DNA of 64,000 nt from Deltaproteobacteria bacterium HGW-Deltaproteobacteria-12 (GTDB lineage: Bacteria; Desulfobacterota; Syntrophia; Syntrophales; Smithellaceae). Positions 44,740 through 62,856 of this stretch are shown in pieces (position 1 is the stretch's first letter; every line of letters starts with the position of its first letter). The stretch is taken from NCBI GenBank assembly GCA_002840565.1, contig PHBK01000003.1, positions 47,493 to 111,492 on the forward strand. Reading direction: 5' to 3'. Both the position numbers and the translations under genes were made by a program. The notes beneath the pieces were generated by a model that saw only the letters and a program-made list of their open reading frames with translations, was not told the DNA's origin and did not search any database.

Positions 44740-45582
44740 TCACATGTAGCTGTGCAGGCTGGGCAGCAGATTTACACCCAGATAGGTAAAAAGAACGCAG
44801 CCGAAGCCAATAACAGCCATAATAGCCATGCGTTTTCCTCGCCAACCCCGGACGTTGTGAGCATGCAGCATCAGGGCATAGATCAGCCAGGTGATCAGCG
44901 ACCAGGTTTCTTTGGGATCCCAACTCCAGTAGGACCCCCAGGCGTAATGCGCCCAGACGGAGCCGGTGATAATGCCCAGCGTTAAAAAGACAAAACCCAG
45001 GGCTACACACTGATACATCAGTTCATCAAGTATGGAATCGGCAGGCAGCAACCTGATAAAAGCGCTTGTTTGTGATGATTCGGCTCCGGCGGCTTTCTTG
45101 ACAAAAAACATGATGCCCAGCGCAAAAGCCACGGTAAAAGCGGCATAGCCCATAAAGCAGGTCAGTACATGCGAGGTCAGCCAGTTGCTTTGCAATGCCG
45201 GAATGAGCGGTTCAATGCGGTTGTTGATTCCGGGCGCAATGGAGGCATAGGCCATGATCAGAAAGGCCACAGGCAAAACAAATGCGCCGAGGCTTCTGTT
45301 TTTTAAACGCCATTCCATTGCGAGATAAAGCAGCACAATCGTCCAGGCAAAGAAAATAAGCGATTCGTAAAAATTGGACAGCGGCGCATGTCCGATGCCG
45401 AGATCGTAGGATGTTTTCCAGCGGATGACCAGAGCCACGCTCTGGGCGACAAGGCCAATCAACGCAGTCCAGGTCGCCAGCTTTCCCCAGAATTCCCTTC
45501 CCAGGATCATCCGGAAAAGATAAAATACAAAAGCGGCAAAATAGATGAAGGTCACCGCGCTCAAGATGGTCGTATTGATCAT
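44740..45582 (-). CDS. ccsA: Cytochrome c biogenesis protein CcsA/ResC (System II haem handling)
   Basis: Polytopic. WWD-type tryptophan-rich motif 'WAHYAWGSYWSWDPKETW' and conserved His residues. Confidence 0.85.
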   Translation of the reverse strand: MINTTILSAVTFIYFAAFVFYLFRMILGREFWGKLATWTALIGLVAQSVALVIRWKTSYDLGIGHAPLSNFYESLIFFAWTIVLLYLAMEWRLKNRSLGAFVLPVAFLIMAYASIAPGINNRIEPLIPALQSNWLTSHVLTCFMGYAAFTVAFALGIMFFVKKAAGAESSQTSAFIRLLPADSILDELMYQCVALGFVFLTLGIITGSVWAHYAWGSYWSWDPKETWSLITWLIYALMLHAHNVRGWRGKRMAIMAVIGFGCVLFTYLGVNLLPSLHSYM

Positions 45583-47009
45583 GGGGAATTCTCCAGTTTA
45601 TCTTTTAGCTCCGCGAGCAGATGTCGCAGTTCGTGTTCCAGCCCCGATTTGTTTTTATAGCTGCGACCGGCAACGCTTATAAGAGACTGCTCCTTCTTCT
45701 GCTCGATCCGAATCCAGACCTGCCGGGAATAAGAGAACAAAACCAGCATCAATCCGGATATCAGGAGCGCTGCCGCGAAGGCCAATACCGGCGTACCCGG
45801 ATCACGGCTCACCTGCAGGCCGGTGAAATATTTTTCTTCCAGTCCCAGAAGAGTGAATGTATAAGGGTGGAAAAGACCGGGATTGAACATCGGAACCTGT
45901 TCAATAATGCCGGGGTTCATTTCCCTGATTTTATCAATATTCTGAAAAACCCAGAAGGTCACTTCTTCTTTTGCGGAACGGACGGCTACTTTTATGGCCG
46001 GTCCCATTTGCATAAGATTCTCTTCCACGCGCAGAACGGTGAACGTTCCTTCTTTTCCCGGAAGTTCAAACTGGTATCCCTTGGCGACATTAATCACATC
46101 CCGGCGGCCGCTTTTCCATAAAGCCAGCGTCGCTTTTCCTTCCGGAGCGGCGCCGTAGCTCGCCTGATAAAAGCGGTATCCTTCAACGGTGACAGGATGG
46201 TTGACCAGCAGCTTTCCCGAATAAATGACCTGATTGTTTCGCAAAAAGGTCAGGTCCGATTGGAACTTTTTGGGTGCGCCGTTTTCATAGAGTTCCAGAA
46301 TAAACTTGTCGCAGCGTACGTCAAAAGGCAGGGGCATGGTCAGTTTTCCGTTGCGCAGAATGAAGGTATTTGCCGTCTCTCCTTCATTGATGTTGAGGTT
46401 TCCTTCCAGTCCGAAGACGGAGCCGATAATGACGCCGGCTATCAAAACCAGAATGCTCAGATGAACGATATAAACGCCGAAGACCGCAAAGCGTCCCTTT
46501 TCGGCACAAAGGACAATGCCCTGTGATTCGTTTCCGCGCTGACAGTTACGGTAGCTTTTTTTTAATACGGCGGCTGCAATATCGGCCGCCTTGGGAGAAT
46601 CCATGCTTGTCGGAAATACATTTTCTTCCGGAAGATTTTTAAAAATATCTTCATTTTGCGGGGATGGCCGCAGGCGAAAACGCCGCCAGGCCAGAGGAAA
46701 CCGATCCAGCGAACAAACAGTCAGATTGATCGTCAGAAGCGCCAGCAAAAGATAAAACCACAGGGAGTGATACAGGTCGAAAATCTGCATGGTCTGCAGG
46801 AAGGAAAAAAGCCCGGGCGAAAGAGTGCGGGCCAGTTCCGCGGCAGCCTCCCGCTGGGGTACGATTGTTCCAATAACGGCGAATAAAGCAATGAGCGCAA
46901 TAAGGACAATGGCCAGTTGAACCGACGAAAAAAAAGACCAGAGGGCGGATTTATTTTTGGTCAAACGAGTTCTCTCCCGATGATGATATTTCCAGATATT
47001 TAACATCAT
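45579..47009 (-). CDS. Cytochrome c biogenesis protein ResB/CcsB
   Basis: 476 aa. 'FSSVQLAIVLIALIA' TM1, large periplasmic domain, C-terminal TM. 4-nt overlap with ccsA. Confidence 0.85.
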   Translation of the reverse strand: MMLNIWKYHHRERTRLTKNKSALWSFFSSVQLAIVLIALIALFAVIGTIVPQREAAAELARTLSPGLFSFLQTMQIFDLYHSLWFYLLLALLTINLTVCSLDRFPLAWRRFRLRPSPQNEDIFKNLPEENVFPTSMDSPKAADIAAAVLKKSYRNCQRGNESQGIVLCAEKGRFAVFGVYIVHLSILVLIAGVIIGSVFGLEGNLNINEGETANTFILRNGKLTMPLPFDVRCDKFILELYENGAPKKFQSDLTFLRNNQVIYSGKLLVNHPVTVEGYRFYQASYGAAPEGKATLALWKSGRRDVINVAKGYQFELPGKEGTFTVLRVEENLMQMGPAIKVAVRSAKEEVTFWVFQNIDKIREMNPGIIEQVPMFNPGLFHPYTFTLLGLEEKYFTGLQVSRDPGTPVLAFAAALLISGLMLVLFSYSRQVWIRIEQKKEQSLISVAGRSYKNKSGLEHELRHLLAELKDKLENSP

Positions 47010-47042
47010 CCCTGTTTTTATGCAATATTTGCAGCAACATGT

Positions 47043-48134
47043 TTACTTTTTGTGACACTTGGCGCAATCGCGGGCGGAAAATGCCTTGCTGCCATTGTGG
47101 CAGACACCACAGGTCTTTCCCTGCAGCATTTCCGACATGATCATTTTTGTCTGACCTTTCTTGACGGCAAAAGGATCAGGATGACATTGATTGCATAAAA
47201 AAATCGCGTGACTGGCATGATGGAAATAGACATTGAGCATTGGTGTTTTATATTTCAGCTGACCCGGGTAATAAACTGGAGTCTTGGCGGCCGGCTTATC
47301 CTTGTGGCAACGGTTGCAGCTGTAAAATGCGGATCCACCTTCGGGGGCATGACAGGTAAAGCACGATTTCCCATTGACATGATCGTTGAAATCAATTTTA
47401 GCGTCACTCTTCCGATAAGCAAATGTCTGCGGATGGCAGGCAACGCAGCCGGATTTAAGCTGATGTTTTTCGTGCTTGAAAGAAACCGCTTTAGCGCCCT
47501 TCCCATACTTTATCGTTTCCGTCGGGGCGGCAGGGGGCTTCTGATGACACTTGTTGCAATCTGTCCAGGCAAACGTACCTTTGCCCTTTTCGGCATGGCA
47601 GGTGAAGCAGTACTTCTTCTGGCTGTGATCAGCCATTTTGATACTTGCCGCTCCTTCTTTGGGCTTAAACACAGAGGAATGACAGCTTTGACAGCTTGCT
47701 TTCTTGACGTGTGATTCGTGGTTAAAGGTCACGCCCTTGTCATCCTTACCCAAAACAACAACTTTTTTATAAGCGGGGATGTCTTTTGATGGTTTCGGAG
47801 CATTTGTGCCCAGATGACAGCGCGCGCACTGCGTATCCGAGGCAAAGGCACTTTTACCGTTATGACAGGCTCCGCAGTACTTTCCCTTATAGAGGGAGTC
47901 CATCGTAAAATCTTTATTTTTCTGAACCTGCAGCGCTTCCATGGCAAACAGGCCGCTGTGACAGGTAATGCAGGAGGTGTTCTTTTGTGAATGATCCTGA
48001 TGGCGAAAAATTACCGATTCTATCGGTTTAGTATAAAGGATGCCGCCCGCAGATTCTTCTCCTGCGCTCATCCCAAAGGATGACGTAATGCCGATCACAA
48101 CAATAATTAACAGGAGGGTAAGTCTTTTTCGCAT
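47043..48134 (-). CDS. Periplasmic dodecahaem cytochrome c
   Basis: Signal peptide and 12 CxxCH motifs counted. They fall into four groups of three, resembling tandem c7-type trihaem domains. Confidence 0.85.
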   Translation of the reverse strand: MRKRLTLLLIIVVIGITSSFGMSAGEESAGGILYTKPIESVIFRHQDHSQKNTSCITCHSGLFAMEALQVQKNKDFTMDSLYKGKYCGACHNGKSAFASDTQCARCHLGTNAPKPSKDIPAYKKVVVLGKDDKGVTFNHESHVKKASCQSCHSSVFKPKEGAASIKMADHSQKKYCFTCHAEKGKGTFAWTDCNKCHQKPPAAPTETIKYGKGAKAVSFKHEKHQLKSGCVACHPQTFAYRKSDAKIDFNDHVNGKSCFTCHAPEGGSAFYSCNRCHKDKPAAKTPVYYPGQLKYKTPMLNVYFHHASHAIFLCNQCHPDPFAVKKGQTKMIMSEMLQGKTCGVCHNGSKAFSARDCAKCHKK

Positions 48135-48146
48135 GGCGCTATCCTG

Positions 48147-48896
48147 CTACCCTTTCATGTAAAAGATATTGGGTTTGGCTCCGGTCTCTTTTTTGAGCAC
48201 CCAGACCGGCTTCTGCAATTGATGAATTAAGTGATACACTCTGTCTTTCGGATTGGCGAGATCGCCGAATACCCGGACATCCGCCGGACAGTGCACCGAG
48301 CAGGCAACGTTTTTCTCTCCCCTGGATAAGCGCTTTGAAAAACAGAAATCGCACTTATCGATGGCACTCTTTTCTTCATTGAAATACCGGGCATTGTAAG
48401 GGCAAGCCACCATGCAAATTTTACAGCCGATGCATTTCTTGTTGTCCATCATTACAATGCCGGTTATTTTATCCTTGTATGTCGCTTTGACGGGACATGC
48501 GCGGACGCAGGGAGGATTGTTGCACTGGTTGCATAGTACCGGAATGAACTCTCTTTTTTGCCCTATTGCCTGCGGCACTTCCCGCTCCAAAACCTTTGTG
48601 CGCCATCCGTAGTCCGGAACGGTGTTGGTGGCAACACAGCCTTTTTCACAGCGGCGGCAGCCGATGCACTGATCCACACGGATCACCATGCTGTAGTGCG
48701 GCTGATAAGGATATTTTTCCGCATAGGTGCCGGATGGGAATAATCTTTCGGCCGCAGAAACGGCGGACACGATGGAACCGCCGGCAAAAATACCGGTGAC
48801 AGCCAGGCCTATTTTCAGGAATTCACGGCGATCCAGTTCGGATATTCTTCCGGATTTTTCCAATATTTTGTCTTTATTTAAAGGCTCAAATATCAT
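48147..48896 (-). CDS. Tat-exported 4x[4Fe-4S] ferredoxin subunit (NrfC/PsrB/HybA type)
   Basis: 'DRREFLKIG' Tat motif and four Cys clusters: 'CIGCRRCEKGC', 'CNQCNNPPC', 'CIGCKICMVAC', 'CDFC'. Confidence 0.85.
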   Translation of the reverse strand: MIFEPLNKDKILEKSGRISELDRREFLKIGLAVTGIFAGGSIVSAVSAAERLFPSGTYAEKYPYQPHYSMVIRVDQCIGCRRCEKGCVATNTVPDYGWRTKVLEREVPQAIGQKREFIPVLCNQCNNPPCVRACPVKATYKDKITGIVMMDNKKCIGCKICMVACPYNARYFNEEKSAIDKCDFCFSKRLSRGEKNVACSVHCPADVRVFGDLANPKDRVYHLIHQLQKPVWVLKKETGAKPNIFYMKG

Positions 48897-50158
48897 AATT
48901 CACTCTCAGCCTTTCCGCTTTCCAAGTCTTCGATGCCCGGCGCTTCGCTAAAACCGTTAAATACCTTCTCCCCGAGCATAAACGCCGCACCGCAAAATCC
49001 CACCCCTCCCAGAGCAACAAGAATTTCTTTCCAGGTAGGCGCATAAGTGTGCAATTGGGAAAATTCCTTGACTCCAAGATCCCAATACAAAGGAACAATC
49101 TGAGCCATAATGACCAGATCCAGGCGCATGAAAAAAATACTGAAAATCATGAGAGCTGCGGCAGTCATCATCAATCCACGCTTCCTGCCAGAAGATCGCC
49201 AGAGCAGAAAAAAAGGAATAATCATGCCGCAGGCCACTTCCAGCACCCAGAAGCTGAAAGCATGCGAGCCGCTGATGGTCTCATGAAGCGTAAGCAGATG
49301 TGTTTCGCCGCCGGTGGTCATGGTAATCAGCTTCCAGACGGTCAAGAAAACAATAGCAGCAATCATCAGCATGGCCAGTTTGCCGACCAGCGCCAATGAC
49401 TTTTCTTCGGCTTCATCCATTTTGGTGTTTCTGATCTTTTGCGCAATAATGCTGAAAAAGATAATGAAAGCACTTCCTGTCATCATGGCCGACAGGATAA
49501 AATAGACCGGCAGAAAGGGGCCATACCAGATATCGCGGCCATGCAGCATGGCAAAGATGCCTCCCAGATTGCTGTGTGCGGCAACGCCGGAGATAACACT
49601 CAGGAATCCGAAAAAGGCGGCAACGCGGTGTGACTCCCGCATCAGCAAAACAAATTCTATCGCCATGAAAATCATATACAGCATATACAGCGCGCCCATC
49701 CACCAGATGTTGGAAGAGAAATTAGGCGATGTAAAAAAGTAAATCAACATCCGGAAGGGATTCTCTATTTCCAGGGCGATCACGAGAAAACCGGATATAA
49801 TTGTAATCAGGGCCAGAAGCACCGACCGTTTGGCAATCGGCAGAAAGTCGCGATTACCGAAGACATGCCCTATGGACGAAACCAGGCAAAGCCCGGTGGA
49901 AGCAACAACAAAGAAAATATACGTGGCAATGAGCAGTGCCAGCGGAATCTCCCGGAAGGTGCCGTAAGAATGAAGGGTGCCCGCTATGAAGATGGAGTAT
50001 ATTCCGGATATAACTCCGGCAATAAGCAGAATGACGAATGCCGTTAAAAGGAATAGATAAACCGGGCCGCCTGATATTACACGGTTTAACGCATCTTTGA
50101 TGCCGGTAATGACGGGCGAATTGACTGTGTTTTCCATGGTGCTACCTTTTCTGGCCAA
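48893..50158 (-). CDS. NrfD/PsrC-like integral membrane quinol-interacting subunit
   Basis: 421 aa, about 10 TM helices. 4-nt overlap with the FeS subunit gene. Confidence 0.8.
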   Translation of the reverse strand: MARKGSTMENTVNSPVITGIKDALNRVISGGPVYLFLLTAFVILLIAGVISGIYSIFIAGTLHSYGTFREIPLALLIATYIFFVVASTGLCLVSSIGHVFGNRDFLPIAKRSVLLALITIISGFLVIALEIENPFRMLIYFFTSPNFSSNIWWMGALYMLYMIFMAIEFVLLMRESHRVAAFFGFLSVISGVAAHSNLGGIFAMLHGRDIWYGPFLPVYFILSAMMTGSAFIIFFSIIAQKIRNTKMDEAEEKSLALVGKLAMLMIAAIVFLTVWKLITMTTGGETHLLTLHETISGSHAFSFWVLEVACGMIIPFFLLWRSSGRKRGLMMTAAALMIFSIFFMRLDLVIMAQIVPLYWDLGVKEFSQLHTYAPTWKEILVALGGVGFCGAAFMLGEKVFNGFSEAPGIEDLESGKAESEL

Positions 50159-50169: not shown

Positions 50170-50724
50170 TCAGGGCACGATATAGTTAAATTTATGGCAT
50201 TGAGCACAGTAGTTTTCCGACTTTGTATGCTGGTGGTGACAAAGATTGCAATCCAGTTCTGTTCCGTAATGGGGCGACGTGTGCGGATTATGCGGTTTTA
50301 TCTTTGCCGTTTTCTCCGCCAGTTTGGCCGTTGCGCCGTGGCAGGCAATGCACTTGCTCATTTCCACCGGTTCCGGTTTCTTCACTTTACCGTGGCATTG
50401 TTCGCATTTGACGCCTTTAAGAGCGTGCAGATGGCTGCCCGGAATTTTAGCTTTCAGCGTTCCGGCGTTGCCTTCTCCCGGAATGTGACAAACAAGACAA
50501 CCTTCATAAGGCATATCCTTTGTGGCGACGTGATTGTCGGAAAGTACTTTTTTGTCTTTATGGCAGCCGGCGCAATCCCATGCTTTTAATTCAGCTTTTT
50601 TCTCCTTCGTCGCTGCCGCCTTTTTTTCTTTGGGGGCGGCGTACAGACTGACTGTAAAAACCGCAATCAGAAATAAAACAAGTGAAAAGGCAATGAGCAC
50701 CTTGCTTGTATTGTTGTTTTTCAT
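50170..50724 (-). CDS. Hexahaem cytochrome c (flavocytochrome-type tetrahaem core plus two N-terminal haems)
   Basis: Six CxxCH motifs. C-terminal 'CIACHG...LAEKT...NPHTSPHYG..LDCNLCHHQH...YCAQCHKF' resembles the haem domain of Shewanella-type flavocytochrome c. N-terminal signal or anchor. Confidence 0.85.
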   Translation of the reverse strand: MKNNNTSKVLIAFSLVLFLIAVFTVSLYAAPKEKKAAATKEKKAELKAWDCAGCHKDKKVLSDNHVATKDMPYEGCLVCHIPGEGNAGTLKAKIPGSHLHALKGVKCEQCHGKVKKPEPVEMSKCIACHGATAKLAEKTAKIKPHNPHTSPHYGTELDCNLCHHQHTKSENYCAQCHKFNYIVP

Positions 50725-50864: not shown

Positions 50865-52442
50865 CTACAGTTTTTCCCTTACAACGTTCTTGCCTGCTTT
50901 GCGCCCAAAGACGACACAGTCTGTCGTGGCATTGCCACCCAGTCGGTTCGAGCCGTGAACGCCCCCCGACACCTCGCCGGCGGCGTAAAGCTTCGGAATC
51001 ACCTCACCGAAGATGTCGATAACCTGCGCATTCTCGTTGATTCGCAGACCGCCCATGCAGTGATGGATCGCTGGCCACTGGGCGACAGCGTAGAAGGGAC
51101 CCTTAACCATCGGGGTCATGGCCTTGGTAATCGGCTTGCCGAATTCGGGATCTTTGCCTTCAGCGAGATAACGGTTGTGCTTCTCGATCGTATCGACCAG
51201 CGCATCTGCGGGAATGCCTATTTTCCCGGCCAACTCGGCGATGCTGTCGGCGACAATAAAACGATTGTGTTTCAAGCCTGTCTCGACTTCTTTGCGGCTG
51301 CCACCTAATTTTTCGATCATCTCATCGCTGAAAATTGTGTAGGTGGGCTTGGCCTGTGGTCCCAGAGCAATCTGCGCAAAACTCACATGATCGCGCCTTG
51401 CCAGTTCGCTGATGAAGCGCTTGCCCTTCTTGGTGACATAAACGATGCCGTTGCCCGGACCGTTGAAAGGATAAAGCGCCGGGCTGTCGAGGATACCCGT
51501 ATCCGGATCGGCATAGGGATACAACTGGATGAAGTTCATCTGCAGAGTATCCGCACCGACAGCCTGGGCGTAGCGGATTGTCTCGCCGGTTGCGCCCCTG
51601 TGGTTGGTGCTTTTCCAATCGCCTGCCAGGTAAGGATAATGATCGCTACGCATTTTGATGTCGCGGCTGAAGCCGCCGGAGGCCAGAATCAGGCCCTTGG
51701 TGATTTTAATATTGGTCACTTTCTTACCCTGTGTGACCTCGACGCCCAGAACGGGGCTTTTCGAATCGGCATCTGCTCTCCAAATCCAGGTCACGGCGTT
51801 GTTGAGGCGGATCTTAGCTCCCCCCTTCTCTGCTATTCGCTTGAGTGCGTCGACATAAATCTTCCCGGAACCGCATGCATGAGAGCGATATGCTGAGTGG
51901 CCACCACCGCGAAGTACTGTCGGGCGAATCACCGCTCCCCCTTCGTCGATCATCCAGTTCAGCGATTCGGTGGCCCCTTCCGCCATGGCCTTGGCCAGTG
52001 CCGGAATGTTGAAGTTGTCGCCCCCTTTTAGGGTGTCCTGCGTGTGGAGCTCGACACTGTCGTCGCCCAGGTTGAGATTCTGGCGATAGTGGAATTTGTC
52101 GTCCCAGGAGTTATATATCCCACCGTTGATGGCGGAGTTGCCACCGATAACGGGCATCTTCTCCAGGATAACGACCTTCGCTCCGGCTTTGGCAGCTTCC
52201 GCGGCGGCTGCCCATCCGGCAAAGCCGGAGCCTACGATGACCACATCGATGGTTTCGTCCCATTTCTTGGGCAGGGGACGCTTGGCTGCTTCCGCAGAAC
52301 CCGGGAGAGCCATATTCAACGCCAAGCCGCTAACCACAGTTGCGGCGCCAACTGCCGCCGCTCCCTTCAGAAAGGAACGGCGATTTACACCTTTTACTTC
52401 TTCATGCAGATTGTTTTTGATTTCTTGTTGATTTGTGTCCAT
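50865..52442 (-). CDS. Tat-exported FAD-dependent reductase, flavocytochrome-c/fumarate-reductase superfamily (paralogue 1)
   Basis: 'NRRSFLKGAAAVG' Tat motif, 'DVVIVGSGFAG' and 'GGNS' FAD motifs, 'HHCMGG', 'NRLGGNA'. The ATG at 52442 has a GGAGG RBS. The track TTG start is at 52454. Confidence 0.85.
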   Translation of the reverse strand: MDTNQQEIKNNLHEEVKGVNRRSFLKGAAAVGAATVVSGLALNMALPGSAEAAKRPLPKKWDETIDVVIVGSGFAGWAAAAEAAKAGAKVVILEKMPVIGGNSAINGGIYNSWDDKFHYRQNLNLGDDSVELHTQDTLKGGDNFNIPALAKAMAEGATESLNWMIDEGGAVIRPTVLRGGGHSAYRSHACGSGKIYVDALKRIAEKGGAKIRLNNAVTWIWRADADSKSPVLGVEVTQGKKVTNIKITKGLILASGGFSRDIKMRSDHYPYLAGDWKSTNHRGATGETIRYAQAVGADTLQMNFIQLYPYADPDTGILDSPALYPFNGPGNGIVYVTKKGKRFISELARRDHVSFAQIALGPQAKPTYTIFSDEMIEKLGGSRKEVETGLKHNRFIVADSIAELAGKIGIPADALVDTIEKHNRYLAEGKDPEFGKPITKAMTPMVKGPFYAVAQWPAIHHCMGGLRINENAQVIDIFGEVIPKLYAAGEVSGGVHGSNRLGGNATTDCVVFGRKAGKNVVREKL

Positions 52443-52687
52443 TGCAGCCTCCAAAAAAAATTTGAATTATTCCGTCAGATGCCGGCAGATAAATTTGCCC
52501 CACAGTTCTGGAAGTGGGCAGATGCGACAACAGAGTAATGATTAATTGGTTTTATGGTGTCTTTCGGCCATGTGTCCTGACGTAACAAATGGGTGCCCAC
52601 ATTTATTGACTGATTTATTATCATCAATATGAAACCACGTAAACGGTTATTTAACAGGTAGATATCGGGTATTGTTATATACCCGTT

Positions 52688-54091: not shown

Positions 54092-54164
54092 TTGTTTCTC
54101 CCTATGCTTTTAACGGACTCTTTACTTTTCATGGCCGTTTTTTTTCGCCTTGTCTTCACTTTGA

Positions 54165-55442
54165 TCATAAAACACGATTCATCAGGAAAGCATGCAGGTT
54201 CAGCTTCTCACCGCTCAGTCCCAGCTTTTTGCGGATATTCTTGCGATGCGTCTGAACCGTATCATAGGACAGCTTCATGGTCGTGCAGATATCCTTGCTC
54301 GAACAACCGGCTTGAACCAAACGGCAGACTTCGATTTCCGTTTTCGTAAGCTTCAGAAGCCCGGCGTCCAGTTCTTTTTCGGAGCCCGTCGTCAATCTAA
54401 TCAGTTGCTCTTCCAGAATCGCCAGGTAGCTCCTGCGGGTGCCCGCTTCGGAGGCGGCTTCGATTTTTTTCAAGCCCGGCAAAAGTGATGTCTTGATTTT
54501 CGAGGCCAACCGGCTTTCACGATCCTTGCGGTCCTCCTCGATGCTTTTCATGACAGTTTTCAGGGTGAGATTCATTTCCTCCACCTGCTGTTTTTCCTGC
54601 CGAAGCTGCATCTCCATCGCTTTCTGCTGGGTGTCGTCCCGAACGATCAGCGACCAGTAAAGCCTGCTGTCAAGATCGCTACGAGCCAACGTCACAGTGG
54701 CCGGAAAGGTTTTGCCGTCCACATACAGAAAGGTTACTTCAACATGCCGGCGCTGGCCATCTATCAAATCCTCCATATGCCGGATTAAAAGGGCGGCGTC
54801 CGCCTCTTCCAGCAGAGACCGTATATTCGATCCAACGATATTCTGAAACTGCATGCCGAAAATTTCGCAGGCTTGCTGGTTGACCTGGACAATTTCAAGG
54901 TCTTCGTCAACCAGCAGAATCCCTTCACCCACGGACATAAAAATCGCACGAAGCAACTTGTCCGATGTCGCCGGATTGGCCGACCTTTGCTCCGGCACCA
55001 CCATGCCCGGCGTCTGCCAGCCGGCAACAATGTTCATCTCGGTGCAATCCGCGACACGCCGAAGTTTCAAAATCATGTCGGTTCGCGCTGCTGCTGAGAC
55101 ATCCGCTCCGGCAAGTCTTTCCTCAACGCAGGAAATCATGGTTTTGAAATAACCGAGAAAAAACTCCAGATCCATGCCGCGCTTCTGCCCGAAACGGGCT
55201 TCGTCGGCCAGCGGCTGCACCAGGCAAAATGCATCGCGCTCGCTTTCCGCAGACATAGCGGTCTTTGCATCCCGGCAGCACAATTCCAGCGCCGCAAGCA
55301 GGCCGGTGAATCTCCGGAGGAAATCTTCGCGGCCGGTCATACGCGGATTGGCCTGTCCGGCCCTGTGCATCCGACGCAGCCATTCTTCAAATATATCCGA
55401 CTGGGCTTCCCTGAATTGATTGAGCAGCTGTTTCGTATCCAT
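54165..55442 (-). CDS. PAS-domain LuxR/FixJ-type HTH transcriptional regulator (no receiver domain)
   Basis: C-terminal 'LTKTEIEVCRLV..G.S.KDI...M.LS..TVQTHRKNIRKKLG'. Central PAS-like 'GEGILLVDEDLEIVQVNQQACEIFG'. Coiled-coil linker. Confidence 0.8.
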   Translation of the reverse strand: MDTKQLLNQFREAQSDIFEEWLRRMHRAGQANPRMTGREDFLRRFTGLLAALELCCRDAKTAMSAESERDAFCLVQPLADEARFGQKRGMDLEFFLGYFKTMISCVEERLAGADVSAAARTDMILKLRRVADCTEMNIVAGWQTPGMVVPEQRSANPATSDKLLRAIFMSVGEGILLVDEDLEIVQVNQQACEIFGMQFQNIVGSNIRSLLEEADAALLIRHMEDLIDGQRRHVEVTFLYVDGKTFPATVTLARSDLDSRLYWSLIVRDDTQQKAMEMQLRQEKQQVEEMNLTLKTVMKSIEEDRKDRESRLASKIKTSLLPGLKKIEAASEAGTRRSYLAILEEQLIRLTTGSEKELDAGLLKLTKTEIEVCRLVQAGCSSKDICTTMKLSYDTVQTHRKNIRKKLGLSGEKLNLHAFLMNRVL

Positions 55443-55450: not shown

Positions 55451-55762
55451 TCAATTGAGTGAGTGCAGATGGCTGCCCGGAATCTTAGCTGTCAGCGTTT
55501 CGGCATTGCCTTTTCCCGGAATGTGGCAAACAAGACAACCTTCATAGGGCATATCCTTTGTGGCGACGTGATTGTCGAAAATCATCCTTTTGTCTTTATG
55601 GCAGCCGGCACAATCCCAGGGTTTCACTTCAGCTTTTTTCTCCTTGGTCGCTGCCGCCTTTTTTTCTTTGGGGGCGGCGTACAGACTGCCTGTAAAAACC
55701 GCCACTAGAAATAAAACAAGTGAAAAGGCAATGAGCACCTTGATTGTATTCTTGTTTTTCAT
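55451..55762 (-). pseudogene. Truncated duplicate of the hexahaem cytochrome gene (first two haem sites only)
   Basis: The 103-aa product is nearly identical to residues 1-100 of the 50170-50724 product. DNA similarity ends abruptly near 55462, 8 nt upstream of the LuxR-gene start. Confidence 0.7.
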
Positions 55763-56452: not shown

Positions 56453-58021
56453 ATGACAGAGGACAAGAAACTTACCAATGCACTAAGCAGAAGAAATTTT
56501 TTAAAGACAGCCGGAGGGGCCGCGGCAGTAGCTGGACTGGCAACCAGTGGTTTGGCTTTAACGCCTTGGACAGCGGAAGCGGCATGCACGACAATGCCCA
56601 AGAAGTGGGATGAGACTTATGATGTTGTGGTTATAGGCAGCGGATTTGCGGGACTTGCCGCCGCTTATGAAGCGAAAAAAGCCGGGGCGTCTGTTGTCAT
56701 TCTGGAAAAAATGCGGACACCGGGAGGAAATTCCATTATCAACGGCGGTGTCGTTTCCGCAGCCGGATCGCCGCTGCAAGAAAAAGAAGGCATCAAGGAT
56801 TCGCCGAAGCTGTTATTGAAAGATATGCTGGCAGCAGGTCTTAACCTGAACCACATCGAACTGGCCCGGATGGTGGCTAATGAGTCAAACAACACGGTCC
56901 AGTGGACCATCAGCGAACTAGGTGTCAAATACAAAGATAGAACTACACAGGAAGGCGGTCATTCTGTCCCCCGGATGTACACCACTTACAATTCGAGCGG
57001 TTCAGCCATAGTTCAGCAGCAATTGGCTAAACTTAAAGAATTAGGTTTGGAGCCGAAAACACAAAGCTGCCTGACCCAAATATACCGTGATGCTGACGGG
57101 CGGGTCAAAGGTGTGCAGATCCGTGAAAAATACGTTTTCCCGAATGCCGACAGTGGAAAGATTAAGAATATTAAAGCCAGAAAGGCTGTTGTCATGGCAT
57201 CAGGCGGTTTCGGGAACGATGTGGCGTTCCGCACGATTCAAGACCCCCGCCTGACCGATGAATTCCAAAGCACCAATCAGCCCGGTTCCACAGCGGAGGC
57301 CCTGCGTGAGGCCTTCCGCATCGGCTGTACACCCCTGCAGCTTTCCTGGATTCAGCTCGGCCCCTGGACAAGTCCGGATGAAAAAGGCATGGGAATCGGC
57401 CCGACTTTCGCCGGGGGATGCACCATGTACGGGCTTTGGATAGATCCCAGGACAGGCAAGCGTTTTGTCAATGAACTGGCCGACAGGAAGATCCGCGCCG
57501 ATGCTATCATCAATGCCGGCAATAACTGTATCGCCTTTACTGATGCCAGAGGTTACGCGATCTTTAAGCAATTTTTAGGAGAGCCTTTAATGCTGAAAAT
57601 GCAGGAAAGAGGCGTTGTTAAAAAATATGACACCCTGGAACAGATGGCGGCGGCATACAATTGTCCCGTCGAACCACTCAAAGCAACAATTGATAAATGG
57701 AATAAGGCTGTTTTAGCGGGAAAAGACGAAGAATGGGGCAGGTATTTACAGAAAGATCAGAAGCCACTCGGTGCCGGGCCCTACTATGTGTCGCGGCTCA
57801 GCCCCAAAGTACATCACTGCATGGGCGGCGTGAACATCAACGCTCAAGCGCAGGCATTGGACGTAATGACAGACAAACCTATTGCCGGACTCTATGCAGC
57901 CGGTGAAGTCACAGGCGGCGTACATGGCGCCGTCCGTCTGGGCAGCTGCGCGACGCTGGATTGTTTAATTTTCGGCCGCATCGCCGGTAAAAACGCGGCG
58001 GCAGAAAAAAAATGGAGCTGA
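56453..58021 (+). CDS. Tat-exported FAD-dependent reductase (paralogue 3)
   Basis: 'SRRNFLKTAGGAAAVAG', 'DVVVIGSGFAG', 'HHCMGG', 'VRLGS'. AAGGAGA RBS. Confidence 0.85.
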   Translation: MTEDKKLTNALSRRNFLKTAGGAAAVAGLATSGLALTPWTAEAACTTMPKKWDETYDVVVIGSGFAGLAAAYEAKKAGASVVILEKMRTPGGNSIINGGVVSAAGSPLQEKEGIKDSPKLLLKDMLAAGLNLNHIELARMVANESNNTVQWTISELGVKYKDRTTQEGGHSVPRMYTTYNSSGSAIVQQQLAKLKELGLEPKTQSCLTQIYRDADGRVKGVQIREKYVFPNADSGKIKNIKARKAVVMASGGFGNDVAFRTIQDPRLTDEFQSTNQPGSTAEALREAFRIGCTPLQLSWIQLGPWTSPDEKGMGIGPTFAGGCTMYGLWIDPRTGKRFVNELADRKIRADAIINAGNNCIAFTDARGYAIFKQFLGEPLMLKMQERGVVKKYDTLEQMAAAYNCPVEPLKATIDKWNKAVLAGKDEEWGRYLQKDQKPLGAGPYYVSRLSPKVHHCMGGVNINAQAQALDVMTDKPIAGLYAAGEVTGGVHGAVRLGSCATLDCLIFGRIAGKNAAAEKKWS

Positions 58022-58045
58022 TCGATCATTTGATTCTGTGAACTA

Positions 58046-58114: not shown

Positions 58115-59008
58115 CTAGGGCTCAAAAGGTGCGGCCGGATCCGCCAGCCATTCCATCGAGGAGCCGTCATAAACTTTCACATCTTTATATCCCAGCATAT
58201 CCGTCATAATTAATGCCCAAGATGTGCAGGTCTTACCGGTATCGCAATAAACAATGATTTCCCTGGCCAAATCGTTTCCCGCAACCTTATCGGCGAGAGC
58301 GGCCAAAACGGCTTTATCCTTGTATAAACCTTCAGGAGTATACAGAGCCCCGACAGGAAGGTTAACAGCGCCCTTGATTCGTCCCAATTTAGGTACGAAA
58401 GCAAGTTTTTCCTTTCCCTCATAAAAAGCCGGGGCGCGGGTGTCGATGATTATAGCCTTGCCCAGTTTGCTCATCACATAAGCCTTGTCCACATAAAGTT
58501 TATCGGTTATTAAAGCCTTAAATGATTTTGCCTTCGCTTTCACCATGTCTTGTGACAATGGCTTGCCTTCTTTTACCCACTGATTCTGCCCGCCATTGAG
58601 GATGGCTGCATTGGGCACTCCCAGGTACTTCAACGTCCAGGCAACGCGGCTCATGTCAAACTGATCGGGAACTTTGTCTGTTTTGCCGACGATTACGACC
58701 AGAGAATCTTTATCGATACCTGCACTCCCGATAACATCGGCAAGGTCATCAATGGGCGGCAGTTCGTTCAGCAGATAACCTTTTTTAATGGCCCATGATC
58801 CATAAAATACATTAACTGCCCCCGGAATATGGCCGGCCTTGTATTCTTCCACTTTACGCACATCCACGATGACTAAGTTTGCATTTCCCAGATTTTTTTG
58901 GAGCCAGTCCGTGGAGACAATGGGATCGATGCCTTTGGCCAGCGCTGTCAGCGGCAGAAGTAATATAATTGCAATTATTACTGATTTTAACCATCTTGCA
59001 TTTCTCAT
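58115..59008 (-). CDS. Periplasmic tandem-rhodanese sulfurtransferase
   Basis: Signal peptide 'LLLPLTALAKG'. Two rhodanese repeats. Only the second has an active-site loop, 'YCDTGKT'. Confidence 0.85.
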   Translation of the reverse strand: MRNARWLKSVIIAIILLLPLTALAKGIDPIVSTDWLQKNLGNANLVIVDVRKVEEYKAGHIPGAVNVFYGSWAIKKGYLLNELPPIDDLADVIGSAGIDKDSLVVIVGKTDKVPDQFDMSRVAWTLKYLGVPNAAILNGGQNQWVKEGKPLSQDMVKAKAKSFKALITDKLYVDKAYVMSKLGKAIIIDTRAPAFYEGKEKLAFVPKLGRIKGAVNLPVGALYTPEGLYKDKAVLAALADKVAGNDLAREIIVYCDTGKTCTSWALIMTDMLGYKDVKVYDGSSMEWLADPAAPFEP

Positions 59009-59022
59009 AGAATCCTCCTAAG

Positions 59023-60306
59023 TTATTTTTTAAGCGGTTTAATGTTGAAAATCAAGCCTTCATTGGCTTTAGAACCTCCTTCTTTGATAACCATTTCTTT
59101 ATTCAGAAAACCTTCTTTCGCCACATGGCAGGAATCACAGGAACGCGTTCTCGACGTTCGTTTTTTGATGTTGTGCACCGCTGAATCCCAATAATTGGGC
59201 AACGCGTCAAAGTTATCCATTTTTATTCCGTGCGCATCAAAAGTGTTCTTTGTAGTGGGAATAAGGCGGAGCGTGGTCAAGGTCTTTTTGTCCCGCGGAT
59301 TCAAACCCAAAATAAAACCCGGCTTTGCTTTCGATCCTGTAGTTGTGTGACAATTGGAACATTGGCGATATTCACCCGAAGAATGGCAGCCGTAACAGGT
59401 TACCTTGTCGATATGCATCTGATGGGATGTTTTAGCCGCGGGAGTCTTTTCGCTGCCCGGCTTGTGGCAGTCCCGGCAGGCCGGACGGTCTTTAACCTGA
59501 TTTTTGGACGCATAAGCCTTGCCGTCGCCGTGAAATTCCATCTTTTTGTGGCAATCCATGCATAACATGCCCTTCTGATAATGAACATCCGGCTCGCCGC
59601 CGTATTCTCCTGTGTATTCAGGGTAGACCCTGCCACCGTGGCAGGACGAACAGGTTTTGCCTTCGTGTTTTTTGACAAATTTATGGCCTGAAATCAGCCC
59701 GGTGGATATTCCGGAAACGGCTGGAGATTTAACGTGGCAATCACCGCAGGAGGCATGGCAACTGCGGCACGACTTTTCAAAGACTTTCTCATCAAATTTT
59801 TTTAAGTCTTCCTTGGAAAAACGGGGCATTACACCGTTTCTCTGGCCGGCGGTCGTGTAATGGAGAGACTTTGTGTATTTGTCGGTAATTGTTTTATGGC
59901 ACGTCGCGCAGTTGGCCATGTTGTCTGAAGGTCTTTTGACCAGATCTTTGTGCGCCTCTTCCTTTTTTAAAACCTTATCGTTTCCCTGATGACATTGGGG
60001 GCAGGAGAGGATAAAGTGCTGATCTTTTTTCAGAATATCACGATCGACAACATACCCTTTATACATTTCTTCCGCCCGGACCGGCGGAGGTGCACCCGCT
60101 CACCCTTCCTCCTCGCCCGCAGGCACAGGTAGCGGTTTATGAAGTGACTTCATCAAAGATTCATTCGTATGACATGTTACACAACTGCTGGGGGGGGCAG
60201 CAGCACTTATAGAACTGTAAAGCAGCAAAGAAATAACGATAATGAATAAACAGTAATATTTGTGCTGGCTTTTCACAAACCCTCTCCAATTTAAATTTGA
60301 ATTCAA
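59023..60306 (-). CDS. Undecahaem cytochrome c interrupted by one in-frame UGA at 60100-60102 (candidate selenocysteine codon, otherwise a pseudogene)
   Basis: ORF 60100-60306 carries the signal peptide and the first CxxCH. ORF 59023-60066 carries 10 CxxCH but no signal peptide. Both are in the same frame, separated only by TGA plus 33 nt. A SECIS-like hairpin follows the TGA. Confidence 0.5.
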
Positions 60307-60614: not shown

Positions 60615-60621
60615 TCAATTA

Positions 60622-60669
60622 TGAAACAGAAATTAAACAAGCGGAAGACGAATAATCTTCCGCTTGTTT
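60622..60669 (-). terminator. Intrinsic terminator after the second hexahaem cytochrome gene
   Basis: 14-bp perfect stem (60635-60648 / 60656-60669) followed on the minus strand by AATTTCTGTTT. Confidence 0.6.
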
Positions 60670-60696
60670 AACATGTTTTAATAAGTTACCGCCGCC

Positions 60697-61224
60697 TTAC
60701 GGTGTTTTAAACTCGAATTTATGACACTGCGCACAATAATTTTCCGATTTGGCGTGCTGATGGTGGCATAGATTACAATCCAGTTCTGTTCCGTAATGGG
60801 GCGACGTGTGCGGATTGGTCGGCTTCACATCTTTTGTTTTTTCCGCAAGCTTTGCCGTTGCACCATGGCAGGCAACACATTGTTCCATGGTCAGAGCTTC
60901 AGGCTTCTTGGTCTTGCCGTGGCATTTGAGGCAAGTTACATCTGCCAGTTGATGAACATGGCTGCCTGGCAATTTGCCGATCAGGTTGAGATTATCTTTT
61001 GTGTGGCAGGCCTTGCAGGCTTCCCAATTCATGGCTTTGGTATCGGGATGCTTATCCGGCAGCATCTTTGCTTTAAGATGGCAGGCGGCGCAGTCTCCGC
61101 TCTTGGCTTTGGACGGCTCCAGTTTGGGGGCAGCCCAAAGAGCCTGACCGAGTATAAACACCATGATAATGCTGAATAAAACAGCGCCCGCTTTCGTCTT
61201 TTTTTCAAACAGATGCTTTTTCAT
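60697..61224 (-). CDS. Hexahaem cytochrome c (paralogue of 50170-50724)
   Basis: Six CxxCH motifs. The C-terminal half is almost identical to the paralogue ('CHGATAKLAEKT...NPHTSPHYGTELDCNLCHHQH'). Confidence 0.85.
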   Translation of the reverse strand: MKKHLFEKKTKAGAVLFSIIMVFILGQALWAAPKLEPSKAKSGDCAACHLKAKMLPDKHPDTKAMNWEACKACHTKDNLNLIGKLPGSHVHQLADVTCLKCHGKTKKPEALTMEQCVACHGATAKLAEKTKDVKPTNPHTSPHYGTELDCNLCHHQHAKSENYCAQCHKFEFKTP

Positions 61225-61253
61225 ATCCCTCCAAAATAATTCTTTCCAAAAGC

Positions 61254-61295
61254 CGGATAACCGGGAACCCGCTCAAACAGTCTCCCGGTTATCCG
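61254..61295 (-). promoter_or_regulatory. 13-bp perfect hairpin between flavoprotein and hexahaem cytochrome genes (weak terminator/attenuator or processing site)
   Basis: CGGATAACCGGGA (61254-61266) pairs with TCCCGGTTATCCG (61283-61295). Only a short U-run (GCUUUUGG) follows on the minus strand. Confidence 0.5.
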
Positions 61296-61302
61296 AAAAA
61301 AG

Positions 61303-62856
61303 TTAACTCCAGGCCTTTTCGCCCGCGGCATTTTTGCCGGCAATACGGCCGAAGACAACGCAATCAGCCATGGCTACTCCACCCAGACGAACAGCTCCGT
61401 GGACGCCGCCGGTCACTTCGCCCGCTGCGTAAAGACCTTTAACGGGCTTTAAATCAAAACCGGTGACCTGGGCGTTTTTGTCGATAACCAATCCCCCCAT
61501 GGTATGATGAACCTTGGGCCAGAGTCTGGCGGCATAAAAAGGTGGAACTGTTGTCGGTTTCGCGTCGGGGAAAATCATACAGTCAAAGTCGGGGTCTTTC
61601 TTTTTTTCTACATAGGAGTTCCATTTGGCAATTTCATCCAGGAAAGTGGCCACCGGCATATTGTATTCTTTGGCCAGCGCTTCCAGGGTGTCGAATTTCT
61701 TAATGGCTCCTGCTTCAATGCCTTTTTGCAGCATGCTGGCCATAACCTGCTTGGTTACGGCGTAGGAATCACCCATAATGAGAACCGGCTCACCGATGGC
61801 AACGATGGCATCGGCTCTTTCTTTCCTGTTTCCCGTTTCCTTGAAAAATCTCTTACCCGTTTTGGGGTTGATCATCAGGCCGTGGCCGACCAGTCTTTCA
61901 CAGAAAAGGGGAACATAGCCGAAGCCTTTTTCATCCGGACTGGTCCAAGGACCAAGCTGAATCCAGTCCATCTGCACATCCATGGCGCCGGCACGGCACG
62001 CTGCCATCAATGCTTCTCCGGTGGCCCCGGGCTGGTTAGTGGAACCGAACCTGTCCGTAAGACGGGGATCGTGTATCTGGCGCAGCTGAAGATCCTCGGA
62101 AAAACCACCCGAACTCAGCACGACAGCTTTTTTTGCCTTGATAAAAGCTGTCTTGCCCGTGCCTTCATTGGGGAATTTATAATCCTTGCGCACTTCGACG
62201 CCGACAATCCGGCCATCCTTGTTGGACAGGAATTTTACCAGTTTGGTGCGCACCTGCAGCTTCACGCCAAGCTCCTTGGCCTTTGCCAGCATCTTGTTGA
62301 CCAGTTCGGAGCCGGAAGAGTTAACCGTTCCGTGGGTTCTCCGGACAGAGTGTCCGCCATGGAAGTTAAGTCTCGTGTACTTGGCGCCGATATAGGATTC
62401 ACTCCATTCAAAGGCATCTTTGGCGCCATAAGCAACCATTTTGGCCAGCTCGGGATGATTCAGATAAGCGCCTGCTTTAAGCATATCTTTTAACATGAGC
62501 TCAGCAGAGTCTTTAACATCTTTTTCCTCCTGCATCTTTGTTCCGGGGGCGCTAAAATCACCGCCGTTGATGATGGAGTTGCCGCCGTGAACCGGCATTT
62601 TTTCCAGGACCACAACGTTGGCCCCCGCATTTTTTGCCTCGATGGCGGCGGCGAGTCCGGCAAATCCGCTGCCGATGACGACAACATCATACGTTTCATC
62701 CCACTTCTTGGGCAGAGCCGTGCATGCCGCTTCCGCTGTCCAGGGTGTTAGAGCCATCCCGGTGGTGGCCAGACCGGCAACGGCTGCGGCCCCTCCGGCT
62801 GTTTTTAAGAAACTTCGCCTGCTGAGTGTTTTTTCTGTAGTGTCATCTTTTTTCAT
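61303..62856 (-). CDS. Tat-exported FAD-dependent reductase (paralogue 4)
   Basis: 'SRRSFLKTAGGAAAVAG', 'DVVVIGSGFAG', 'HHTMGG', 'VRLGG'. The ATG at 62856 is better spaced from the GGGAGG RBS than the track start at 62862. Confidence 0.85.
   Translation of the reverse strand: MKKDDTTEKTLSRRSFLKTAGGAAAVAGLATTGMALTPWTAEAACTALPKKWDETYDVVVIGSGFAGLAAAIEAKNAGANVVVLEKMPVHGGNSIINGGDFSAPGTKMQEEKDVKDSAELMLKDMLKAGAYLNHPELAKMVAYGAKDAFEWSESYIGAKYTRLNFHGGHSVRRTHGTVNSSGSELVNKMLAKAKELGVKLQVRTKLVKFLSNKDGRIVGVEVRKDYKFPNEGTGKTAFIKAKKAVVLSSGGFSEDLQLRQIHDPRLTDRFGSTNQPGATGEALMAACRAGAMDVQMDWIQLGPWTSPDEKGFGYVPLFCERLVGHGLMINPKTGKRFFKETGNRKERADAIVAIGEPVLIMGDSYAVTKQVMASMLQKGIEAGAIKKFDTLEALAKEYNMPVATFLDEIAKWNSYVEKKKDPDFDCMIFPDAKPTTVPPFYAARLWPKVHHTMGGLVIDKNAQVTGFDLKPVKGLYAAGEVTGGVHGAVRLGGVAMADCVVFGRIAGKNAAGEKAWS

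Follow-up and report, generated by a model that had tools for sequence, protein, structure and literature searches.

A putative modular periplasmic respiratory system of flavin reductases and multihaem cytochromes, with a probable selenoprotein, in an uncultured member of the Smithellaceae

Smithella-type Syntrophales are treated as obligate syntrophic fermenters. This report addresses a gene cluster from an uncultured member of the Smithellaceae, Deltaproteobacteria bacterium HGW-Deltaproteobacteria-12, which lies at positions 44740 to 62856 of a 64,000-nucleotide stretch of contig PHBK01000003.1 (positions 47,493 to 111,492 of the forward strand, GenBank assembly GCA_002840565.1). This whole stretch is referred to as the window, and all coordinates below are window positions, followed by the strand. 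The cluster contains an NrfD-type membrane module with cytochrome c maturation genes, several flavin adenine dinucleotide (FAD) proteins with hexahaem cytochromes, a PAS-LuxR regulator with a signal-less flavoprotein, and an 11-haem cytochrome next to a rhodanese. We consider it likely that these parts make up a modular periplasmic respiratory system, comprising a quinol-oxidising hub, reductase pairs, a regulator cassette and a selenocysteine-containing unit. The finding suggests that Smithella-type syntrophs may also respire small organic acceptors and, if true, niche modelling of these syntrophs in digesters and sediments would change. A literature search on Smithella and flavocytochrome returned nothing relevant.

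All the genes that an earlier sequence-only reading of this DNA had listed were found in place and on the expected strand, as judged from open reading frames, translations, counts of the haem-binding motif CxxCH, and Pfam and NCBIfam profiles. Relatives of the cluster were collected by scanning a hexahaem-cytochrome profile against 185,579 species genomes. This gave 210 hits, the best 80 of which were used, and synteny was scored in 79 species-level loci. The best 80 of the 210 hits come nearly all from metagenome-assembled genomes (MAGs) named Smithella, Smithellaceae, Syntrophaceae, Syntrophales, Syntrophorhabdus or unclassified delta proteobacteria, and two of the loci belong to a single Geobacterales MAG. 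Four cluster products carry a twin-arginine translocation (Tat) signal, namely the flavoproteins F1, F3 and F4 and the NrfC-like ferredoxin, while the cytochromes and the rhodanese carry signals of the general secretory (Sec) type.

The hub is encoded by three consecutive genes. The membrane subunit (48893..50158, -) belongs to the NrfD family (PF03916, E = 2.6e-27, 96.7 bits against a cut-off of 25.8) and has at least nine hydrophobic segments. Its gene overlaps by 4 nt the start of the gene for an NrfC/DsrO/TtrB-like ferredoxin (48147..48896, -; PF13247), which has the Tat motif RREFLK and 16 cysteines. Three complete CxxC..C...C motifs and four further cysteines are enough for four [4Fe-4S] clusters. 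The third component is a 12-haem cytochrome c (47043..48134, -) with a Sec-type signal peptide and 12 CxxCH motifs (PF14522, E = 3.7e-47), built from four c7-type trihaem domains of the "nanowire" type TIGR04257, which matches four times with 222 bits. Directly after it come ResB (45579..47009, -; PF05140, E = 5.3e-99) and CcsA, or CcsB in the TIGR naming (44740..45582, -; PF01578, E = 2.6e-54; TIGR03144, 278.8 bits against a cut-off of 187.6), with the start of ccsA overlapping resB by 4 nt. This gene pair specifies System II cytochrome c biogenesis, in which CcsA is the haem-handling subunit and ResB its partner.

The hub cannot be equated with a named complex by its profile matches. The ferredoxin matches TtrB (170 against a cut-off of 416), DsrO and NrfC below their cut-offs, and the membrane subunit matches HmcC (50 against 550) and DsrP weakly; every NCBIfam match to a Qrc, Hmc, Dsr, Nrf or Ttr equivalog lies far under its cut-off. 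A molybdopterin catalytic subunit (PF00384) was searched for among the cluster proteins and none was found. The order hexahaem cytochrome, NrfD, NrfC, 12-haem cytochrome recurs in 20 of the 79 loci, and ResB, with or without CcsA, comes next in 17 of these 20. These 20 loci support the earlier proposal of a dedicated quinol-dehydrogenase module with its own maturation genes. Furthermore, in seven assemblies with more than one locus, each assembly has one NrfD module and extra stand-alone pairs of flavoprotein and hexahaem cytochrome, which is the pattern expected for a shared quinol-oxidising hub with its own maturation genes. From homology and synteny together we infer an electron path from menaquinol through the NrfCD and 12-haem components to the reductases.

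Two complete hexahaem cytochromes are present, each with 6 CxxCH motifs and a PF14537 domain, and they share 54% identity. Hexahaem cytochrome 1 (50170..50724, -; E = 1.5e-19) lies between the NrfD-family gene and the flavoprotein F1 (50865..52454, -; likely start ATG at 52442), and hexahaem cytochrome 2 (60697..61224, -) lies next to the flavoprotein F4 (61303..62862, -). Aligned to Fcc3 (E = 4.5e-11), a profile of the hexahaem family places its last four haems on the tetrahaem domain at residues 9-93, all four CxxCH motifs being in register, so the hexahaem protein amounts to a detached Fcc3 haem domain with two extra N-terminal haems. A flavoprotein gene and then a hexahaem gene are adjacent in 63 of the 79 related loci. 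F1 and F4 each have an adjacent, Sec-exported, Fcc3-related cytochrome, and F1/hexahaem 1 and F4/hexahaem 2 are proposed as electron-transfer partners.

The flavoproteins provide the other half of the comparison. F1 to F4 score 402, 448, 452 and 485 bits against TIGR01813, "flavocytochrome c", whose cut-off is 285. All four have an N-terminal GxGxxG FAD_binding_2 domain (PF00890, E-values of 1e-64 to 1e-71), and none has a CxxCH motif. They align over their full length to the FAD and clamp domains of FccA (residues ~118-566) and UrdA, with 200-282 bits and 33-39% identity, and their scores against KstD are lower, at 79-101 bits. The top solved-structure match of F1 is UrdA (261.5 bits). An FMN_bind domain is absent from the Pfam results for the window proteins. 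Together, the flavoproteins and the hexahaem profile support a split version of the Shewanella-type flavocytochrome c, as the first inspection of the sequence had proposed. The same inspection had counted four Tat-exported flavoproteins; this holds for F1, F3 (56453..58021, +) and F4, which have a Tat signal with RR motifs, and fails for F2 (52688..54091, -), which has no signal peptide. A fifth flavoprotein, F5, lies on the source contig past the end of the window. Pairwise identity among F2 to F5 is 44-81%, with F1 as the outlier at 37-43%. F3 and F5, at 81%, mark the upper end of this range, and F3 is evidently a recent duplicate of F5.

The active sites point to reduction of a carbon-carbon double bond next to a carboxylate. 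The equivalents of Arg402, Arg545 and His503 (FccA numbering) are kept in all five paralogues, and that of His504 is present in F1, F3, F4 and F5 and replaced by Tyr in F2. The UrdA counterparts of FccA Arg402, Arg545 and His503/504 are Arg411, Arg560 and His520 (PMC7921117). The residues that hold the second carboxylate of fumarate are gone. At the position of FccA His365, where the cluster sequence reads IQLGPW or IQLYPY, F1 has Tyr and F2-F5 have Gly, and FccA Thr377 and Arg381 are substituted in every paralogue. These replacements of His365, Thr377 and Arg381 indicate enoate-type reductases that do not use fumarate, and the predicted substrate range of the flavoproteins therefore excludes it. 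The clamp loop is different in each paralogue. As the pockets differ, the acceptors probably differ too, and the paralogues would probably not share one substrate.

The marker residue Tyr373 of UrdA, which takes the place of the His of fumarate reductases, has its equivalent in F1 alone (IQLYPY), with Gly in F2-F4, and in UrdA this tyrosine makes no substrate contact (PMC7921117). In the region of UrdA Asp388, a clamp-helix residue (Asp, or Asn/Gln) to which the imidazole ring binds, the ILDS of F1 resembles the IADS of UrdA at a shifted offset, where loop lengths differ and the alignment is ambiguous. None of the window flavoproteins reaches an NCBIfam equivalog cut-off, in agreement with the earlier statement that no substrate could be assigned from the sequence.

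F2 stands apart from the exported flavoproteins. Its N terminus, MWHEEYDVVIIGSG, is preceded closely by an in-frame stop, which leaves no room for a signal peptide, and F2 is predicted to be a cytoplasmic member of the flavocytochrome-c family. Among 120 close homologues, most of them 464-484 aa long, the GxGxxG motif lies within ~20 residues of the N terminus in 110, and all of the 120 keep the equivalents of Arg402, Arg545 and His503 without change. These homologues include proteins of Malonomonas rubra, Desulfosediminicola, Desulfofustis and Desulfuromusa. That F2 is a pseudogene shortened at its N terminus, or a product of misassembly, was considered and is ruled out by the 120 intact homologues and the fixed synteny.

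The regulator upstream of F2 (54165..55442, -; PF13426, PF00196, TIGR00229) is a one-component protein with a PAS domain and a LuxR/GerE helix-turn-helix, and it has neither a receiver domain nor a hydrophobic or transmembrane segment. Among 27 metagenome loci, 24 have its gene directly 5' of the F2 homologue and the remaining three are incomplete, and an exported flavoprotein and a multihaem cytochrome follow downstream of the F2 homologue wherever the contig reaches. The order PAS-LuxR, F2, exported flavoprotein, cytochrome is found in the Syntrophaceae and in Desulfosediminicola (including D. flagellatus), and a short Malonomonas rubra contig holds the PAS-LuxR/F2 pair only. The pair is thus spread over several orders of the Desulfobacterota (window 52688-55442, -; loci L084-L088 and L092-L118). 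We infer that F2 is functionally coupled to the PAS-LuxR regulator, as a co-sensor or as an inducer-processing enzyme. If F2 is a co-sensor, this would be a new mode of controlling respiratory reductases, and the presence of the pair in cultured Malonomonas rubra, Desulfosediminicola and Desulfofustis makes it open to direct study.

The 11-haem cytochrome c (59023..60306, -) and the rhodanese (58115..59008, -) form a further unit. The rhodanese, a periplasmic protein, has two tandem domains (PF00581, E = 6.1e-34), a signal peptide and the active-site loop CDTGKT. At least 18 loci have its gene next after the 11-haem gene, and the order flavoprotein, hexahaem cytochrome, 11-haem cytochrome, rhodanese occurs in at least 13. 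In the window, a terminator-like hairpin of 18 pairs followed by a T run (60632..60672, -), located after hexahaem 2, divides the F4-hexahaem pair from the cytochrome-rhodanese unit. The count of 11 haems, as first given, depends on read-through of an in-frame TGA at 60100-60102, since one CxxCH motif lies upstream of it and ten lie downstream. The open reading frame from 60306 to 60100, with the signal peptide and the first haem, stops at this TGA, and the 10-haem reading frame continues in the same frame. The likely start is a GTG at 60276, after the ribosome-binding site GGAGAGG.

Several observations argue that the TGA encodes selenocysteine. Of 27 species-level loci, 26 have it at the identical codon, even where identity in the compared segment falls to 58%, within the motif GEG-U-AGAPPPVR(A/P)E, and the coding sequence on both sides is in frame and conserved. 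A further case, locus L090 (JGI record P0064), was translated as Trp by the annotation pipeline. TGA is the normal stop of 13 of the 45 window genes, which implies that the standard genetic code is used. An 11-nt spacer 3' of the UGA separates it from a hairpin resembling a selenocysteine insertion sequence (SECIS) (60071..60088, -; UCCGCC-GGUCCG-GGCGGA), whose loop residues G22 and U23 are invariant across the aligned loci. The nucleotide sequence downstream of the codon is itself constrained: at four-fold-degenerate third positions of codons +4 to +8 the entropy is 0.47 bits, whereas 72 comparable codons in the rest of the gene have 1.44 bits (Mann-Whitney p = 1.5e-4). This synonymous-site test was used in place of covariation counting, which was uninformative in 25 sequences because the stem barely varies, four of its six pairs being invariant. 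Single-sequence folding of the SECIS region was not significant (z = -0.03). A scan of Rfam at gathering threshold returned a cobalamin riboswitch as its sole match and no SECIS family, and neither a selenocysteine tRNA (tRNA-Sec) nor sel genes were found in the 64-kb window.

The 11-haem cytochrome is therefore a probable selenoprotein of a new family, as read from these sequence features. Recognising the UGA gives the cytochrome family back its signal peptide and first haem, and enlarges the selenoproteome by one probable new family. In public annotation the protein appears as a signal-less "cytochrome c3 family protein" of 346-347 aa, because gene callers end at the conserved UGA; this concerns loci L004-L067 and L090 as well as the window. 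The selenocysteine lies near the N terminus in a flexible, Gly/Pro-rich linker, and the protein has no spare cysteine beyond its haem motifs. An AlphaFold2 model of a full-length homologue was poor, with a mean predicted local distance difference test score (pLDDT) of 58, and below 50 in the linker of the selenocysteine. Searches of solved structures and NCBIfam with the 11-haem protein gave no meaningful relative, only sub-threshold matches to ExtN, ExtO and ExtM. The cytochrome-type selenoprotein families picked out by a term search in a 2026 review (PMC13188914), which are ExtKL/MccSep, the GSU2204 family and octahaem TIGR04315, gave no NCBIfam match either. In nine full-length homologues the selenocysteine position holds Ala, Ser (TCA), Arg (CGA), Tyr or a mistranslated TGA.

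Two side observations concern the neighbourhood of this cytochrome in relatives. In L031, L036, L041, L046, L053, L054, L058 and L060, another ResB-like gene comes after the rhodanese in the selenocysteine unit, so that maturation genes accompany both modules. The homologues lacking selenocysteine in L089 and L091, with CGA or TCA at the codon, adjoin multihaem cytochromes of 655-716 aa and not flavoprotein-hexahaem pairs; the one in L089 also lies beside a rhodanese.

The cluster had first been described as an island, and this description makes it seem more foreign than it is. A horizontally acquired island was rejected, given that the G+C content of the cluster (0.46-0.53) resembles that of its flanks and that the same modules are syntenic across the Smithellaceae. 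Mobile-looking parts are limited to an AbiE region (G+C 0.37) and an insertion sequence of the IS630 family. The locus has nevertheless changed recently. The 5' remnant of a hexahaem gene (55451..55762, -; 103 codons, 2 CxxCH) is 91% identical in nucleotides to positions 50417-50716. The closest relatives, L014 and L005, are 81-88% identical to the window in the nucleotides of the shared genes. After the rhodanese gene they have an unmatched stretch of ~1.8 kb and then hexahaem-nrfD, neither a flavoprotein nor a regulator gene intervening, and the matching promoter and 5' hexahaem DNA continues uninterrupted into hexahaem-nrfD. The same point in the window holds F3 and the PAS-LuxR/F2/F1 cassette, and the truncated copy preserves the ancestral promoter region together with the initial 300 nt of the hexahaem gene. 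The intact arrangement in L014 and L005 implies that the remnant is the scar of cassette entry into a resident hexahaem gene, and not a sign of decay. The cluster is a lineage-typical locus with recent remodelling by cassette insertion, duplication and insertion sequence, and it is not foreign.

The IS630 element (63123..64000, +, and on the source contig to ~64280) had been placed at the far edge of the cluster; the element is present, outside that interval, between F4 and F5. It has 14-nt terminal inverted repeats and an intact DDE_3/HTH transposase of 360 aa, which starts at 63198 (+) and extends beyond the window end. Past it, the source contig carries F5, a Crp-family regulator, a thioredoxin and a YgaP-like membrane protein. 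Further genes there encode a Fer4_11 iron-sulfur protein and a Ni_hydr_CYTB b-type cytochrome, which may form a second quinol-linked module. At the other side of the cluster, a 219-aa predicted lipoprotein (44021-44680, -; lipobox LLSLPGC) without a Pfam or NCBIfam match lies directly downstream of ccsA, and an AbiEi/AbiEii type IV toxin-antitoxin pair (41769-43647, +) of low G+C (0.37) adjoins the cluster and resembles a small mobile insertion. A cobalamin riboswitch (RF00174, 96.9 bits; 36820-37002, -) lies 5' of a TonB-dependent receptor gene (34720-36789), next to FecCD/ABC transporter genes. The remaining genes of the window are housekeeping genes, including those for lipid A synthesis, BamA, LysRS, GAPDH and TPI.

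Taken as a respiratory system, the cluster would work in the following manner. The NrfD-like subunit would oxidise menaquinol and pass electrons to the Tat-exported four-cluster ferredoxin and on to the 12-haem cytochrome, with ResB and CcsA, encoded alongside the hub, supplying haem attachment. From the 12-haem cytochrome, electrons would flow to the soluble hexahaem cytochromes and then to the Tat-exported FAD subunits F1 and F4, and probably F3. There the double bond of an alpha,beta-unsaturated carboxylate would be reduced, with a hydride from N5 of FAD and a proton delivered via the conserved arginine. F2 would most likely work with the PAS-LuxR regulator, either co-sensing a ligand or the redox state or, as an enzyme in the cytoplasm, making or removing the inducer. 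The earlier interpretation holds in outline, with corrections: the 11-haem cytochrome and its rhodanese constitute a conserved unit of their own, apparently dependent on selenocysteine, which had gone unnoticed, and F2 is tied to the regulator. The 11-haem/rhodanese unit would probably draw on the same hub and may reduce sulfur or selenium species, a plausible role by analogy with ExtH and MccSep of Geobacter. Through its selenocysteine, translation may be gated by selenium, or the residue may be a novel ligand of a haem or of the substrate. A more specific combined proposal is tentative: the 11-haem protein would be a second family of multihaem cytochrome c selenoproteins that reduces sulfur or selenium species with the rhodanese via the NrfCD/12-haem hub, and F2 would help the PAS-LuxR regulator to sense a ligand or the redox state.

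Several points weigh against this respiratory system. The direction of electron flow is not readable from sequence, and Qrc-type relatives of the hub reduce menaquinone. KstD and TcuA, of the same PF00890 superfamily as the flavoproteins, are dehydrogenases. F3 has no cytochrome gene beside it, and in one complete relative (L004/L007) ResB/CcsA do not follow the hub. Cysteine is found at the selenocysteine position in none of the nine full-length homologues, an unusual pattern for a selenocysteine with a catalytic role. The pocket of F2 hardly varies, yet that of its exported partner comes in two classes, one being the F1 type of the Syntrophales and the other a different type found in other orders, and this fits poorly with F2 as a sensor of the substrate of its partner; nor does F2 have an obvious electron donor. 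Lastly, the related genomes of the hexahaem scan are all MAGs.

The first alternative is that the whole cluster, F4 and hexahaem 2 included, serves sulfur or selenium chemistry, with the rhodanese delivering sulfane sulfur or selenium and with the selenocysteine cytochrome, and perhaps the flavoproteins, reducing polysulfide, selenite or an organosulfur enoate. The F4-hexahaem-11-haem-rhodanese order conserved in at least 13 species speaks in its favour, as do weak matches of the cytochrome and rhodanese to ExtN, ExtM and ExtH of the Geobacter selenite/tellurite operon and the thioredoxin and YgaP-like genes just past the window. MccSep, a multihaem selenoprotein of Geobacter, acts as a polysulfide/selenite reductase (PMC13510729), and ExtH, going by a title cited in that paper, is a Geobacter rhodanese-like lipoprotein studied with the selenite-uptake porin ExtI. 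However, the strong terminator separates F4 and hexahaem 2 from the cytochrome-rhodanese unit, most flavoprotein-hexahaem pairs occur without a rhodanese or 11-haem gene, the flavoproteins keep the carboxylate-binding Arg/His set of enoate reductases, and the 11-haem protein has no detectable homology to MccSep. Sulfur or selenium chemistry for the entire cluster is therefore unlikely.

A second alternative reverses the current: the flavoproteins would oxidise saturated or hydroxylated acids and feed electrons to a Qrc-like NrfD menaquinone reductase, or the cytochromes would serve interspecies or extracellular transfer. The dehydrogenases of the superfamily allow such a direction, the host lineage is known for syntrophy, and trihaem domains of the "nanowire" type make up the 12-haem protein. 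In addition, the hub gives sub-cut-off matches to QrcA, QrcC, HmcB, HmcC, DsrO and DsrP, which belong to complexes that carry electrons from periplasmic cytochromes to the quinone pool. The flavoproteins, however, are nearest to the FccA/UrdA reductase clade and score far lower with KstD, and they retain the arginine pair of enoate reduction. Enoate/alkanoate couples lie above menaquinone in potential, which favours reduction. Moreover, all characterised split relatives are reductases (PMC4427408; bioRxiv 10.1101/2024.02.11.579808). On this balance the reverse direction appears quite improbable.

The last alternative, that the cytochrome split by the TGA, the flavoprotein without a signal peptide and the shortened hexahaem gene are pseudogenes left by insertion-sequence activity and recombination, can appeal to the IS630 copy, to one truly truncated hexahaem gene and to the 346-347-aa annotated fragment, but it is hardly credible and largely refuted, since the TGA is conserved in 26 of 27 species with both halves in frame and constrained nucleotides downstream, F2 has its 120 intact homologues, some of them in cultured Malonomonas, Desulfosediminicola and Desulfofustis, and the 103-codon remnant is the sole true scar; decay, which the sequence-only reading had named as evidence that would count against its proposal, is thus largely set aside, for the split cytochrome as much as for F2.

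The proposed respiratory system can now be placed beside known ones. In the Mrd/Mcc system of Geobacter sulfurreducens AM-1, the ArdAB system of Shewanella woodyi and the FccA/FccB system of Wolinella succinogenes, as in the cluster, a Tat-exported, haem-free FAD subunit is encoded beside a Sec-exported multihaem cytochrome donor. Mrd/Mcc reduces methacrylate and acrylate, and not fumarate, and Mcc has 7 CxxCH motifs (PMC4427408). ArdAB is an acrylate reductase whose activity requires co-expression of the cytochrome (bioRxiv 10.1101/2024.02.11.579808). The catalytic arginines are likewise retained and the fumarate-specific His and Thr are substituted; for Mrd, set beside the cluster by its published residues, Trp replaces the fumarate-specific His and Val replaces Thr/Ser (PMC4427408). 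The partners differ in haem number, with 6 in the cluster (two plus an Fcc3-type tetrahaem set) against 7 in Mcc, 4 in ArdB and 4 in FccB. With FccA and UrdA, the cluster flavoproteins share the whole FAD and clamp region, at 34-39% identity, and the equivalents of Arg402/411, His504/520 and Arg545/560. They differ in that the domains are on separate genes, that FccA His365, Thr377 and Arg381 are missing, and that the covalently bound flavin mononucleotide (FMN) domain of full-length UrdA is not present.

The link to the quinol pool is a further point of difference. Shewanella uses CymA as its quinol link, and Wolinella uses FccC of the NapC/NirT type. The hub cytochrome of the cluster is a soluble-type 12-haem protein made of c7 domains and not a NapC/NirT-type tetrahaem protein. 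The operon, with its NrfCD and 12-haem quinol-oxidising module, provides a specific candidate for the transfer of electrons from menaquinol to the reductase cytochrome, a step for which no carrier has been named in the Mrd/Mcc system. With Cbc4, Qrc, Hmc and alternative complex III, the hub shares an NrfD-family subunit, a periplasmic protein with four [4Fe-4S] clusters, a multihaem cytochrome c and the lack of a molybdopterin subunit. Cbc4 (CbcSTU) of Geobacter is a quinol oxidoreductase composed of a cytochrome, a four-cluster iron-sulfur protein and a membrane subunit (bioRxiv 10.1101/2025.04.14.648717). Unlike these named NrfD-type complexes, the hub is co-encoded with ResB/CcsA and with flavin reductase pairs.

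The nearest comparison for the 11-haem protein is MccSep of Geobacter (ExtKL, GSU2937-2936; PMC13510729), which is likewise a periplasmic multihaem cytochrome c with one UGA-encoded selenocysteine and a SECIS-like hairpin, mis-annotated as two open reading frames. MccSep has 5 haems and its selenocysteine near the C terminus, whereas the cluster protein has 11 haems and its selenocysteine near the N terminus. MccSep also has a Cys-ligated catalytic haem, unlike the 11-haem protein with no spare cysteine and no Cys-type form among its nine homologues. The 11-haem protein gave neither a match to NF040886 nor a solved-structure match that would indicate homology to MccSep. Both systems have a rhodanese link, which is the adjacent gene in the cluster and ExtH in Geobacter. 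ExtH and MccSep presumably belong to one Geobacter locus.

Arrays of flavin reductases linked to regulators in other anaerobes, a parallel drawn from the outset, are indeed described: in gut Eggerthellaceae, Burkholderiaceae and Erysipelotrichaceae, multiple PF00890 flavin reductases stand beside regulators and have narrow, unpredictable specificities (bioRxiv 10.1101/2022.12.26.521950). The cluster resembles these arsenals in its paralogous PF00890 reductases, their divergent pockets and the neighbouring regulators. It differs in coming from environmental Syntrophales, in being supplied by dedicated cytochromes and an NrfCD hub, and in having a cytoplasmic PAS-LuxR regulator that is always paired with a cytoplasmic reductase paralogue. 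Compared with the known split flavocytochrome c reductases, the novelty of the cluster is its hexahaem partner, its operon-encoded NrfCD/12-haem donor and its cassette of a regulator with a reductase paralogue.

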